Of a DNA stretch of 64,000 nt, positions 2,610 to 6,800 are shown piece by piece (the stretch's first letter is position 1; each line of letters begins with the position of its first letter). Source of the DNA: a candidate division FCPU426 bacterium (lineage in GTDB: Bacteria > Oederibacteriota > PGYV01 > Palsa-1178); the NCBI GenBank assembly GCA_963840035.1, contig CAWIXE010000002.1, positions 128,001 to 192,000 on the forward strand, read 5' to 3'. The position numbers and the translations under genes were made by a program. The notes below the pieces were generated by a model. The model did not search any database and was not told the origin of the DNA. It saw only the letters and a program-made list of their open reading frames with translations.

Positions 2610-2936
2610 ATGAAACAAAACATCATCGTAACAACAGCCTTTGAAATCCCCGACATGAAGGTCGTAGAACACAAAGGCCTCGTCCGCGGTATCATTGTCA
2701 GGACCCCAACCATTATCCAGGGCGTCCTCGGCGGCCTAAAATCCATCATAGGCGGAAACATAGGAGCCTACACGGAAATGTGCGAGCAGGCCAGGACCCA
2801 GGCATACGACGCACTGGTAGCCCACGCGCAGCAGCTGGGAGCCAACGCGGTCATAGGAGTGCGCTACGACGCATCAGAAGTGGCAGTAGGGGCGACGGAA
2901 GTGCTGTGTTATGGCACGGCGGTTGTGGTTAAGTAA
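2610..2936 (+). CDS. YbjQ/UPF0145 family protein
   Basis: GGAGG RBS before ATG 2610; motifs GLKSIIGG, GANAVIGVRYD, EVLCYGTAV. Confidence 0.92.
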   Translation: MKQNIIVTTAFEIPDMKVVEHKGLVRGIIVRTPTIIQGVLGGLKSIIGGNIGAYTEMCEQARTQAYDALVAHAQQLGANAVIGVRYDASEVAVGATEVLCYGTAVVVK

Positions 2937-2951
2937 ATATACACGTTTTTT

Positions 2952-3738
2952 GTAGAGCCACCGCTTGCTGCGGCTCAGACGTTGGATTTCGTAGTCGCAG
3001 GCCTTCGTCTCACCGGCCTGCGCCTAGATAAGGGATTGAATAACGCAAACGAAAGACGGACCAGACCACGTATGACCAGTTACTAATCTATTAAAATGAT
3101 GGTTGTCGGGAGGTGGTTGTGTTTAAAAAAATTACTAAAATTATTGGCGTTGTGATGGTGTTCGCAATATTAATTGGGATATTAGGCTGTTTCTTTGCGG
3201 AAAAAACGATACCTGGATTTGTTTCAAATATCGTGTGCGAAAAGATGTATGGCGACACTACTATCCCGCACAATTTGTTTGTTGATTACTTTGATATTTA
3301 TAATTATCAGATTATTAAGAGTGGAAAACTATCAAAGCAATCAGATTGTTATACAAAATATCTTAAAGAAACAGAAAGAATTAAATATTTTTCTGAAGAT
3401 AAAATCAAAGTAATCGACAATTATTACAAGGCTTGGAATGATTTAACCGATAACCCAAAAATAAACGGCCTTTTGAAGTGCTACAGGTTATCGATTTTAA
3501 AAAAAGAAATTGAAAGGTATTACGGCATTTAATTAAGTCGGATTAAGCGTGGTATTTATCTTGTTATAATATTCTATATGCTTTGGCCGCGAATTTTATT
3601 TCATGCAACTCCACGTTTTAATATATCAATCAATGACGCAAACGAAAGACGGACTAGACCATGCTTGCGCACCCCGATGAAGCGTAGAGGGTGCGACTAC
3701 CAATGTCAAAGGCGAGACACAGCAAGCTGTGTCTCTAC
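2952..3738. mobile_element. Nested REP-doublet element carrying a gene cassette between 26-bp direct repeats
   Basis: Left half 2952-3068 and right half 3636-3738 match the halves of the empty copies at 19124-19353 and 21170-21353; direct repeats at 3043-3068 and 3636-3661. Confidence 0.7.
3113..3532 (+). CDS. Hypothetical AT-rich protein with N-terminal membrane anchor (cassette cargo)
   Basis: 139-aa ORF, GGAGG near the start, visibly AT-rich relative to neighbours. Confidence 0.7.
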   Translation: MVVFKKITKIIGVVMVFAILIGILGCFFAEKTIPGFVSNIVCEKMYGDTTIPHNLFVDYFDIYNYQIIKSGKLSKQSDCYTKYLKETERIKYFSEDKIKVIDNYYKAWNDLTDNPKINGLLKCYRLSILKKEIERYYGI

Positions 3739-3766
3739 GAAGAACATTTAAACACATAAATATTAT

Positions 3767-3795
3767 TTGACAACCACCCGTATTTTTGTTATATT
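3767..3795 (+). promoter_or_regulatory. Sigma70 promoter of the leader peptide
   Basis: TTGACA-17 bp-TATATT with extended -10 TG. Confidence 0.8.
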
Positions 3796-3820
3796 CTAAT
3801 CACAAAGGAGGACGTGCACA

Positions 3821-3934
3821 ATGGCTAATAATTACAGCAATTCTATCGCAATCAACACAGCCATTAATACGTCTGTCCTTCTTCCGGTAGTAGTCCTTTT
3901 ACTTACCGGGCTTCTGGTAGTCGTACTCGCCTAA
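3821..3934 (+). CDS. Branched-chain amino acid attenuator-like leader peptide, 37 aa (MANNYSNSIAINTAINTSVLLPVVVLLLTGLLVVVLA)
   Basis: AAAGGAGG RBS directly behind a strong promoter; runs of Val/Leu codons; overlapping alternative hairpins at 3906-3993; adjacent to the ilv-leu cluster. Confidence 0.75.
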   Translation: MANNYSNSIAINTAINTSVLLPVVVLLLTGLLVVVLA

Positions 3935-4039
3935 GGCGAGCAACGGCGCAGAAACCCGGGAACCTCAAAAAACCCCCAAGTTTCAAGCGCCGTGATAGGT
4001 CTGTTTACAGTTGCTATATTATATAGTCCCATCCACTTT

Positions 4040-4153
4040 CCTCCCCCTTTTAGGGGGAGGATCAAGGTGGGGGTGAAGTTGTACTGCGGGAGGGTCAGCT
4101 GTGTATGTGCTGCGTTGACCCTCACCCTGGCCCTCTCCCTGGAAGGGAGAGGG
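4040..4153. repeat. Palindromic repeat doublet of the CCCTCACCC..CCCTCTCCC..GGGAGAGGG type
   Basis: Two hairpins in inverted arrangement; related copies at 16699-16784 and 36713-36801. Confidence 0.75.
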
Positions 4154-4172
4154 AAAAGGTAGGTGAAACTTT

Positions 4173-4967
4173 ATGATGGACAAGTGGAACGCGCAGGAGT
4201 ACAGGAAGAATTCTCAGAACCAGTACAGGTGGGGGATGGAGCTTGTTTCTAAGACCGGCGTAAAGAAAGGTGATAGTGTCCTTGATATTGGCTGCGGGGA
4301 CGGGAAGATTACCGCGGAGATTGCGAAGAGAGCAAGCGGCGGAAAGACCGTGGGACTGGACAGTTCCGCTAAGATGCTGAAGCTCGGGAAAAAGTTGTTC
4401 CCGGCTGATGCATACCCGAACCTGAGTTTTAAAAAGGCTGACGCGCAGAAATTTGATGTAAAAGGGCCATTTGACCTTGTTTTTTCAAATGCCTGTCTGC
4501 ACTGGATAAAGGACCAGAACAAAGTGTTGAAGAACGTAAATAAGGTTTTACGCCCGGGCGGCAGGATATTCTTCCAGATGGGCGGCAAGGGCAACGCAGG
4601 AATAATGAATGAAATAGTGGAAAATATGACAAAACAGGATGAGTGGAAAAAGTATTTTAAGAAATTCAAAGGCGCTTACTATTTCTATTCACCCGAGGAG
4701 TATATAGTGTTCCTGAAGAAAAACGGATTGCAGCCGGTGCGGGTTTTTCTTAACCCTAAGGTTGCCGTGCATGAAGGTGCGGCTGGCCTTGCCGCCTGGA
4801 TTAGGACCACATGGCTTCCTTATACCCATATGGTGCCTGCAAAACTGCGCGAATCCTTCATCGGCGAGGCTGTAGCTAAGTTTTTAACGGCAACAAAACA
4901 AATAGATAATAAGGTAGTTCAAATGCAGATGATAAGGCTCCAGGTTGAGGCTGTAAAACCCCTTTAA
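4173..4967 (+). CDS. Class I SAM-dependent methyltransferase, trans-aconitate methyltransferase (Tam)-like
   Basis: N-terminal WNAQEY, motif I VLDIGCGDG, FDLVFSNACLHW, LRPGG. Confidence 0.85.
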   Translation: MMDKWNAQEYRKNSQNQYRWGMELVSKTGVKKGDSVLDIGCGDGKITAEIAKRASGGKTVGLDSSAKMLKLGKKLFPADAYPNLSFKKADAQKFDVKGPFDLVFSNACLHWIKDQNKVLKNVNKVLRPGGRIFFQMGGKGNAGIMNEIVENMTKQDEWKKYFKKFKGAYYFYSPEEYIVFLKKNGLQPVRVFLNPKVAVHEGAAGLAAWIRTTWLPYTHMVPAKLRESFIGEAVAKFLTATKQIDNKVVQMQMIRLQVEAVKPL

Positions 4968-4981
4968 AATAAAGGGTTTTT
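4955..4981 (+). terminator. Possible intrinsic terminator overlapping the methyltransferase stop
   Basis: aaaacccctttaaaataaagggttttt hairpin with T tract. Confidence 0.5.
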
Positions 4982-5025
4982 CATGGTGAAACAGAAAAAA
5001 GCCATAGTTTTAAGGGCTTTTTCGG

Positions 5026-5054
5026 TTGAACCGAAGTTTGATTTTTGATATACT
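5026..5054 (+). promoter_or_regulatory. Putative sigma70 promoter of ilvD
   Basis: TTGAAC-17 bp-TATACT with extended TG. Confidence 0.65.
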
Positions 5055-5123
5055 CTTTACGTTTTCTGTATACACGTAAAGTTACATATATGCAACGAAA
5101 AATTTAGTAAAAGGAGATATAAA

Positions 5124-6800
5124 ATGAGATCTGACGCGATGAAGAAAGGCAATGAAAGACAGCCGCACAGGGCGCTTTTTAAAGCCATTGGTTATTCGGA
5201 TGAACAGCTGAAAAGACCTATAATCGGCGTTGTTAATTCATTTAATGAAGTTATTCCGGGGCACATACACTTAAACACCATAGCGCGCGCCGTGAAAGAC
5301 GGTATCCTTATGGCTGGCGGCACGCCCATGGAATTCCCGACAATCGGCGTTTGTGACGGCATAGCAATGGGCCACGCGGGCATGAAGTATTCGCTCGTTT
5401 CCCGCGAGTTAATAGCCGACGGCATCGAGATCATGGCAAACGCTTATCCTTTTGACGGACTGGTTTTCATACCCAACTGCGACAAGATAATCCCCGGCAT
5501 GCTCATGGCGGCTGCCAGGGTTAATGTCCCGTCCATATTCATCAGCGGCGGCGCCATGTTAAAGGGTAAATACAAAGGCAAGAATTATGACCTGATATCC
5601 GGCGGCTTTGAGGCTGTCGGCGAATTTGCAAATGGCAAGCTTTCCAAAGAGGATCTGGCAGGTATTGAAAATTCCTGCTGCCCGACCTGCGGCTCATGCT
5701 CGGGAATGTTTACCGCGAACACCATGAACTGCATGACAGAAGTGCTTGGCTTAGGCCTACCGGGGAACGGGACTATCCCCGCGGTTTATTCAGAGAGGAT
5801 AAGGCTTGCTAAGACCGCCGGCATGAGGATACTTGAACTCGTGGAAAAAAATATAAAGCCACGTGACCTTTTGACTGATAAGGCTTTTGAAAACACATTT
5901 ACAGTTGACGTGGCGCTTGGCGGCTCGACAAACACTGTGCTCCACCTGCCTGCGATCGCGCATGAAGCCGGATTAAAGTTTGACTTAAAAAAGATAAACG
6001 AAATATCGGCGAAGACCCCGAACCTGTGCAAGCTTTCGCCGGCAAGGCGTTCCGACGGCAGCCAGCACTTTATTGAGGATTTAAACGACGCGGGAGGCAT
6101 TCCGGCGGTTATGATGGAACTCGCGAAAAAGAAACTTCTTCACCTGGACGCAATGACGGTCGCGGGCAAGATCGGCGATATCATAAAGAACGCGGAAAAT
6201 ATTAATACTGACGTTATAAGGACGGCGGAGACTGCGTACTCGCAGCAGGGCGGCCTCGCGATATTATTCGGCAACATAGCCCCTGATGGGGCTGTTGTAA
6301 AACAGTCGGCAGTCGCGCCGGAGATGATGAAAAGGGAGGGCAGGGCAAGGGTTTTTGGCTCCGAAGAAGACGCTCAAAAAGCGATCCTCGGAAAAAAGAT
6401 CGTGCCCGGTGATGTAGTAGTCATCCTGTATGAAGGCCCCAAAGGCGGGCCGGGCATGAGGGAAATGCTCGCTCCCACCGCGGCGATAGCCGGCATGGGG
6501 CTTGATAAAGACGTGGCGCTTATTACGGACGGAAGGTTCTCCGGAGGCACGAGAGGCGCGGCCATCGGCCACATCTCCCCTGAAGCAATGGAAGGCGGCC
6601 CCATCGGCCTGGTGCGCGAAGGAGATATCATAGCCATAGATATTCCGGCAAGAAAAATTGACCTGAAAATATCGGACGGGGAAATGGCAAAAAGAAAGTC
6701 CGAATGGAAACAGCCGGAGCCGAAAATAAAAAGCGGCGTTCTTTACAGGTACTCGCAGATGGTGACATCGGCGTCTACAGGGGCTGTTTTTAAAGACTAA
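5124..6800 (+). CDS. ilvD: Dihydroxy-acid dehydratase
   Basis: [42 protein letters not shown] motifs. Confidence 0.98.

Follow-up and report, generated by a model that had tools for sequence, protein, structure and literature searches.

What does a short open reading frame (ORF) rich in leucine and valine codons control, when a methyltransferase gene stands between it and a cluster for the synthesis of branched-chain amino acids (BCAA)? The question is raised by a locus of a candidate division FCPU426 bacterium, analysed here within a 64-kb window (the whole stretch of DNA examined, 64,000 nucleotides, corresponding to positions 128001-192000 of contig C2 in the genome denoted G000). A leader peptide ORF of 37 residues (positions 3821..3934 of the window, + strand) is followed by a gene for a class I S-adenosylmethionine (SAM)-dependent methyltransferase of 264 residues (4173..4967, +) and then by ilvD (5124..6800, +), the first gene of a run ordered ilvD-ilvB-ilvN-ilvC-leuA-leuC-leuD-leuB-asd, which extends to 16523. 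A sequence-only reading had proposed that the leader controls the methyltransferase, that ilvD is expressed separately, and that the enzyme may act on an isopropylmalate-type intermediate. The features that it described, i.e. a promoter, a ribosome-binding site, a 37-codon ORF with 15 Leu or Val among its last 19 codons, the methyltransferase, a hairpin and an ilvD promoter, were all found in place; it is their assignment to target genes that had to be revised. The leader is, with high probability, a Leu/Val-sensing switch for the ilv-leu operon. With less assurance, but still as the account that we favour, leader and pairings together are read as a ribosome-dependent attenuator of that operon, and the methyltransferase as a dispensable gene lodged between the switch and a second promoter-like site (P2), likely a co-induced passenger.

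The evidence that carries this answer is the distribution of the leader. A total of 41 genomes were searched with the IlvD and methyltransferase proteins, and the 1.5 kb upstream of ilvD were read at 30 loci. Within the order to which G000 belongs, a homologous leader lies ahead of ilvD at 20 of the 21 loci with upstream DNA. A covariance model of the leader RNA, built from those 20 loci, matches 21 of the 24 genomes of the order, once in each and invariably upstream of ilvD; 20 of these matches are the sequences that built the model, G021 being the sole independent one. The genomes not matched are G014, with no ilvD match, G017, where ilvD is truncated by a contig end, and G016, which has no leader: ample DNA is available upstream of ilvD in the latter (locus L015), and it holds a 236-residue ORF and one promoter-like site. 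Outside the order the model matched 1 of 75 genomes, marginally (E 0.0095). Gene content upstream of the leader differs between genomes, and the leader-ilvD(-ilvB) block is constant, ilvB following ilvD at all of the 20 loci of the order with downstream DNA, as well as in G017.

The methyltransferase does not share this constancy. In the gap between leader and ilvD, an intact enzyme gene was found in 6 genomes, a wreck of it in 2 and no trace in 13. Since 15 of the 21 leader-bearing genomes thus keep the leader before ilvD without an intact enzyme, the leader is not the methyltransferase's own, and the proposal that it serves this gene, with ilvD apart, finds no support. The leader is retained also where the enzyme has decayed, as judged by the RNA model (E 1e-15 in G001, 6e-29 in G002).

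The sigma-70-like promoter of the leader, P1 (3767..3795, +; TTGACA-17-TATATT with an extended -10 TG) matches the consensus at 11 of 12 positions and is the top scorer among nine promoter-like sites in 3000-5600; a TTGACA or TTGACT hexamer occupies its position in 19 of the 20 loci of the order that were compared. A GGAG-type ribosome-binding site, AAAGGAGG (3804..3811, +), is conserved in the alignment of the order. Of the last 19 codons of the ORF, 8 encode Leu, 7 Val and the remaining 4 other residues, none of them Ile; the three Ile of the peptide all fall within its first half, which is poorly conserved across the order. By contrast with the 834 ORFs of 20-60 residues led by a ribosome-binding site in G000, among which it alone reaches 15 Leu, Val or Ile per 19 residues, the run of Leu and Val exceeds chance. 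Leu, Val and Ile make up 11-16 of the last 20 residues in all 20 leaders of the order examined. A genome-wide scan of G000 gave no second convincing leader peptide, and none ahead of cimA.

Downstream of the control codons, a conserved switch RNA (3906-3993), which had escaped the sequence-only reading, can be drawn in two alternative folds. Segment 2 (3906..3924, +), contained in the ORF at codons 29-35, is the predicted partner of segment 3 in the ON fold. A short hairpin surrounds the stop codon (3926..3940, +), and segments 3 and 4 (3943..3993, +) form the OFF hairpin, which is conserved and GC-rich and has a loop rich in C and poor in G; an AGGT motif after it is also conserved. In an alignment of 20 rows, 81.9% of the cells of the OFF hairpin were paired, with 16 two-sided changes; neither value was reached in 500 shuffles, and controls obtained by sliding the structure gave 35-51% of paired cells. 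As the structure was derived from G000 and the aligned rows are kin, the test gives support rather than proof. In 12 of 20 genomes the ON duplex, between segment 2 and the 5' arm of the OFF hairpin, is better than the duplexes of synonymous recodings (p<0.05); in the divergent G012, G022, G023, G018 and G013, the cognate leader comes top among the 20 for this duplex. On these computational grounds, mutually exclusive antiterminator and terminator-position hairpins are predicted, and the leader, conserved before ilvD together with its alternative pairings, is very likely functional, as had been supposed from its Leu/Val codons. Comparison with Rfam gave nine weak matches in 2900-5200, all under the gathering score, with no T-box or riboswitch among them.

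A mechanism can be proposed along the following lines. P1 would produce the leader RNA; when charged Leu or Val tRNA is scarce, ribosomes would stall in codons 19-27, allowing segment 2 to pair with segment 3, and this pairing would block the 3:4 hairpin, so that transcription would continue through the methyltransferase into ilvD. When the tRNAs are charged, the ribosome would mask segment 2, the 3:4 hairpin would form, and transcription would stop. Since no U-tract follows the hairpin, a rho gene is present in the genome and the 5' leader RNA is C-rich and G-poor (mean C 0.27, G 0.13, versus C 0.23, G 0.28 in the operon genes), the OFF hairpin would most likely serve, on a tentative reading, as a pausing point at which Rho gains access to the leader RNA. 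P2 would supply the operon with a basal level of transcripts. When Leu or Val is short, the enzyme would be induced along with the operon, under tighter control than ilvD. The enzyme gene very likely depends on P1, because in G005 the 98 nucleotides from the leader stop to the enzyme start codon, mostly switch RNA, leave almost no room for a promoter of its own. Its product would be the methyl ester of a small carboxylic acid.

Such an arrangement belongs to a well-known regulatory kind, of which the leader is a U-less variant serving the ilv-leu operon. E. coli ilvL and ivbL are ribosome-dependent BCAA attenuators. With known systems of this type the leader shares a short Leu/Val-rich ORF heading an ilv-leu operon, the pairing of part of this ORF with a hairpin farther downstream, at its 5' arm, and the mutual exclusion of the pairings. 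It differs from them by the missing U-tract, by a control run of about 15 codons that reaches the stop codon, by a second promoter-like site before ilvD, by the presence of an optional gene within the leader region and by having no Rfam match. A Leu-rich attenuator peptide is described upstream of ilvD-leu in Staphylococcus aureus (PMC5794164), and classical attenuator logic for the ilvB leaders of Corynebacterium, an ilvB-II upstream ORF (PMC10272879), and of Mycobacterium tuberculosis, at ilvB1 (PMC13236596); for Actinobacteria, leaders lacking terminators are reported, with Rho as the proposed agent (PMC1262725). No paper that deals with the leader of this order, or with the occurrence of a Tam-like gene within an ilv-leu operon, was found in a literature that was mostly open-access and taken without supplements. 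In another family of the phylum, f12 (L022/G038, L023/G032 and L025/G025), ilvD is preceded by a different leader, of lesser length, which closes with a run of Val and a Gly and is unmatched by the RNA model, with a stop-codon hairpin and a C-rich tract and no obvious 3:4 stem downstream; it is possibly a simpler, Rho-type form.

The methyltransferase gene is an old resident of its slot. Intact copies lie between leader and ilvD in G000, G003, G005, G006, G007 and G023, and 7 of the 8 genomes in the family of G000 hold the enzyme or its wreck there. The remnant of G002 (L006) consists of nine N-terminal codons fused by an internal deletion to the last 55 codons; that of G001 (L008) is a frameshifted, decayed middle part, scoring 39.8 bits against a best of 2.9 in 300 shuffled gaps. 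The clean deletion and the old decayed fragment represent two stages in the loss of the same gene. No remnant was counted in the other 13 gaps, where the signals were a score of 3.9 bits in G018 (control best 2.9) and a protein match at E 0.08 in G009. Since both remnants and five intact copies of the family share the slot, the enzyme is placed there from the family ancestor onwards, with at least three losses (G001, G002 and G004) during which the leader stayed. A recent insertion, considered as an alternative, was rejected on the same evidence. Synteny in relatives, suggested as a check by the sequence-only reading, therefore goes against it in one respect and not in the other: the leader does stand directly before ilvD in most genomes, which it had named among the refuting findings, but the methyltransferase is no newcomer, and its position directly behind the leader is old within the family.

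Several observations weigh against the account of an attenuator with a passenger, some concerning the gene and others the switch. The ilv-linked enzymes form one clade (support 100/100; 55-91% identity) and have been kept in precisely this slot in four genera belonging to two families; all 6 close orthologues with visible context sit in it. The ratio of non-synonymous to synonymous substitution rates (dN/dS) is 0.10-0.15 for the enzyme versus 0.05-0.08 for ilvD in four pairs, indicating purifying selection, and such retention is not required of a neutral passenger. Moreover, G023 is a member of a different family, in which its congeners G012 and G022 carry an identical leader peptide and no enzyme, so that the copy in G023 implies that the gene reached this slot a second time or else that losses were far more numerous; a single family clade was not rejected by the approximately unbiased (AU) test (p=0.078), and the larger tree, of 80 rows, was a quick version only. 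Distant members within the phylum, in G010 (41%) and G027 (44%), are located away from the slot.

According to the strongest alternative, the leader is indeed the operon's attenuator and the methyltransferase belongs to the pathway as a genuine, if optional, member, esterifying an acid of the ilv-leu or citramalate route (2- or 3-isopropylmalate, isopropylmaleate, citramalate, citraconate or trans isomers) for overflow, for damage control of the aconitase-like LeuCD, or as a signal, like yeast Tmt1. We consider it rather unlikely. To its credit, the gene has been maintained in the slot by purifying selection from the family ancestor onwards, was possibly gained twice (G023), and is the sole gene here upstream of P2, so that it would depend wholly on the switch. 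The metabolic setting also agrees with it: cimA scored over the cut-off in 23 of the 24 genomes of the order and a match to ilvA (TIGR01127) was obtained in none of the 24, so that isoleucine is likely made by the citramalate route, and LeuCD would handle extra small diacids. In G000, cimA (C2:1149734-1151284) lies downstream of an aspartate kinase gene, with no leader, and a second, distant IlvD-family gene (C3:18750-20393), 44% identical to the operon copy, has no BCAA leader in the genome-wide scan.

The enzyme belongs to a family of 3,121 uncharacterised proteins (E<=1e-40), with named members in Bathyarchaeia, Verrucomicrobiae, Chloroflexi, Bacillota and Thermodesulfatator; they are often automatically named trans-aconitate methyltransferase (Tam) without passing the Tam models. 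It matches Pfam Methyltransf_31 with 85 bits, and its SAM-binding motifs of class I (LDIGCGDG, D63 and SNA) are invariant in 40 aligned rows. The description as Tam-like stands in a loose sense. Tam, the bacterial trans-aconitate 2-methyltransferase (E. coli b1519; Agrobacterium tumefaciens 2P35), has the same class I fold plus cap domain (Z 21.9, root mean square deviation (rmsd) 2.8, 239 aligned positions) and shares with the enzyme an N-terminal W-N..Y..S pattern and a C-terminal R-L, the overall identity to E. coli Tam being 22%. As an identification with Tam it fails: the models PRK01683 and PRK14103 gave 97.8 and 92.7 bits, below the NCBIfam equivalog cut-offs of 297 and 320. Tam Arg16 is replaced by Gln17 in the enzyme, and Tam LQW, TGLRP and ERxRP by LHW, TWLP and NQYRW; it is at these Tam positions (ERxRP, LQW and TGLRP) that the acid is predicted to bind, by alignment with juvenile hormone acid methyltransferase (JHAMT).

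The predicted structure of the enzyme (predicted local distance difference test, pLDDT, 94.9) is closest, among solved ones, to 3CCF, an uncharacterised methyltransferase of Anabaena variabilis (Z 28.0, rmsd 2.1, 235 aligned; E 2.5e-30; 27% identity), the title of which names no function. The best characterised structural neighbours among the matches listed are 4VPMT2 (Z 25.7, rmsd 2.6, 252 aligned) and JHAMT 7EC0 (Z 24.2, rmsd 2.4, 238 aligned). The former, judging from its entry name, presumably acts on a phenol, in which case the same scaffold would be usable on phenols. The JHAMT group (4VPMT2, SAMT and a mycobacterial fatty-acid O-methyltransferase) comprises related carboxyl or phenol O-methyltransferases; from the enzyme it is separated by an identity of about 20%, by the eukaryotic nature of its enzymes and by their unrelated substrates. 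In the enzyme, Q17 was found in 119 of 120 homologues (one gap), H110 and W111 in all 120, and R255 is invariant; the first three align with Gln15, His115 and Trp116 of JHAMT. These JHAMT residues are reported to anchor the substrate carboxyl, Gln or His mutants being inactive (PMC8526772). That a methyl ester is formed on a small carboxylic acid is, by this alignment, plausible, phenol O-methylation being a less likely alternative.

Carboxylate-anchoring residues, together with R255, favour the role in the pathway, and so does the precedent of yeast Tmt1, a trans-aconitate 3-methyltransferase that is reported to methylate 3-isopropylmalate and isopropylmaleate (PMC6320622, PMC3197675). The likeness to Tmt1, in that a leucine-pathway acid would be esterified when amino acids are short, is one of functional analogy alone. 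No yeast Tmt1 entry occurs among the best 50-60 matches listed in the sequence and structure comparisons, and Tam and Tmt1 are themselves described as catalysing distinct reactions (PMC6320622). The active-site motif is common to the whole 3,000-member family, hence unspecific, and the closest characterised folds, JHAMT and 4VPMT2, act on hydrophobic mono-acids or phenols. At least three losses within the family, and a slot empty of intact enzyme in 15 of 21 genomes running the same pathway, also speak against a role in it.

The relatives in other organisms point in the same direction. At least 80 metagenome loci were matched, none of those listed being from the close clade, and 42 near-full-length ones were analysed as family members, with a Pfam scan covering 63 of the 105 nearest neighbour ORFs. 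A BCAA-rich short leader ORF was found at none of the 32 loci with at least 350 nucleotides upstream, and an ilvD or leuABCD neighbour at none of the 42, within the available DNA (many contigs being short). The neighbours are mixed: at 6 of the 42 loci the gene is flanked by argC and argJ; 3 of the 42, all in the argC-argJ clade, have ilvN or ilvC nearby on the opposite strand. The argC-argJ placement (L064, L069, L070, L090, L094 and L098) corresponds to one well-supported clade, in frame with the operon, and at L061 a His_biosynth gene follows the family gene; operons for amino-acid biosynthesis may, as a class, be a favoured setting of the family. A contig search with the single enzyme protein gave one distant locus; in the phylum of that locus, none of 399 scored genomes matches at 1e-60, two more being unscored. 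Two distant plasmid matches, at about 30%, were also obtained.

Nothing was found, in sum, that links the acid of the enzyme to leucine synthesis in particular. For the isopropylmalate substrate of the sequence-only reading, nothing beyond analogy could be gathered, the Tam models having failed and the outside relatives being devoid of a BCAA leader; that the enzyme acts on any ilv-leu intermediate is doubtful. A more elaborate version deserves mention, in which an independent bacterial counterpart of Tmt1, a JHAMT-like enzyme recruited perhaps twice and brought fully under the control of a Leu/Val attenuator, esterifies an acid of the isopropylmalate or citramalate route for overflow or damage control, while the switch ends transcription by a U-less pause hairpin and Rho. 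We hold this combination to be unlikely.

The remaining points against the favoured account, that of an attenuator with a passenger, concern the switch itself. Column by column, the alignment backs the ON helix moderately (68% paired; covariation reached in 9 of 500 shuffles), and G002 and G006 carry a change that weakens the ON duplex (p=0.11). The control codons extend to the stop codon, where a stalled ribosome would mask segment 2. The C-rich bias of the leader RNA is partly forced by the encoded amino acids. The OFF hairpin is followed by 2 U in 8 nucleotides in G000, 5 U being reached in 1 of 20 genomes, and the terminator scan finds no terminator there; U-tract terminators are used at gene ends in G000, the counts for the two strands being 29 and 18 among 92 convergent gaps, and 0 in shuffles. 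Termination at the OFF hairpin is therefore putative, as a U-tract is missing from a genome that does use such tracts.

It could be argued from this that no classical attenuation takes place, and that ORF and hairpins act through RNA stability, through pausing alone or through the hydrophobic peptide itself. Besides the absence of a U-tract and the control codons abutting the stop codon, similar leaders of Streptomyces coelicolor ilvB are reported to be unresponsive to codon changes (PMC1262725), and the three f12 genomes combine a Val/Leu leader and a stop-codon hairpin with no obvious 3:4 stem. However, in 12 of 20 genomes segments 2 and 3 are complementary at the nucleotide level beyond the needs of the encoded peptide, the leader always heads the ilv-leu operon, and conservation is poor in the first half of the peptide, so that we regard this explanation as quite improbable.

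Between the methyltransferase and ilvD lie two copies of an AT-rich palindrome of the AAAACCCT...AAGGGTTTT type (4955..5022, +) and P2, a second sigma-70-like promoter (5026..5054, +; TTGAAC-17-TATACT). The first copy is the terminator-like hairpin of the sequence-only reading, a hairpin with a U-run at 4960-4976; its left arm is overlapped by the last codons of the enzyme gene. Whether or not the enzyme is present, the palindrome, single or doubled, closely precedes the P2 -35 box; it lies ahead of ilvD in G004, G008, G011, G012, G018 and G022, all lacking the enzyme. A promoter-like site with at least 9 of 12 matches is present in the P2 region at 20 of 21 loci, irrespective of the methyltransferase, such scores also arising by chance in AT-rich DNA. 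Hairpin and promoter, taken earlier as marks of a separate ilvD unit, thus both occur in relatives that have no enzyme to be separated from. P1 transcripts would likely read through the palindrome into ilvD, because a strong terminator there would make the switch pointless in the enzyme-less relatives. That the leader controls the methyltransferase alone, the hairpin at 4960-4976 ending its transcript and P2 driving ilvD independently, is highly improbable: a U-run hairpin right behind the stop codon and P2 do exist, but leader and pairings persist in 15 genomes without an intact enzyme, where ilvD is the sole possible target, the palindrome separates switch and P2 in six enzyme-less genomes, where a strong terminator would void the switch, and a terminator scan gave no more sites than chance (2, versus 2.6 expected). 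The palindrome itself, also seen at C2:1536231 and C2:116210 of G000, is a candidate operator, weak terminator or relic of a gene end.

Strong hairpins (z -5.5) in the leader-enzyme gap were considered as a part of the switch and rejected. They correspond to two inverted palindromic repeats (4040..4153, no strand assigned), similar to repetitive extragenic palindromic (REP) elements, which were not described in the sequence-only reading and belong to a genome-wide family (38 further BLAST hits; 122 pattern matches). Since the pair is missing from the leader-enzyme gap of five relatives (G003, G005, G006, G007 and G023), it is placed outside the switch. At least three families of REP-like repeats occur in G000, represented in the window at 2945-3070, 3630-3745 and 4040-4153, with dozens to over 100 copies; the three intergenic queries gave 170, 152 and 39 BLAST matches, and a tandem array lies near C2:429850-430450.

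For the uncultured order, the finding amounts to a conserved BCAA switch, the output stage of which is not a U-tract terminator, and which thus bears on attenuation without intrinsic terminators. The methyltransferase, an old and dispensable rider, is probably co-regulated. It offers a testable lead on a large uncharacterised family, the active site pointing to carboxyl methylation, and two lineages have placed the gene within amino-acid biosynthesis operons, ilv-leu here and argC-argJ elsewhere. If an ilv-leu acid is its substrate, the enzyme would represent a bacterial side branch so far known from yeast; if not, it would be an ordinary accessory gene riding the operon.

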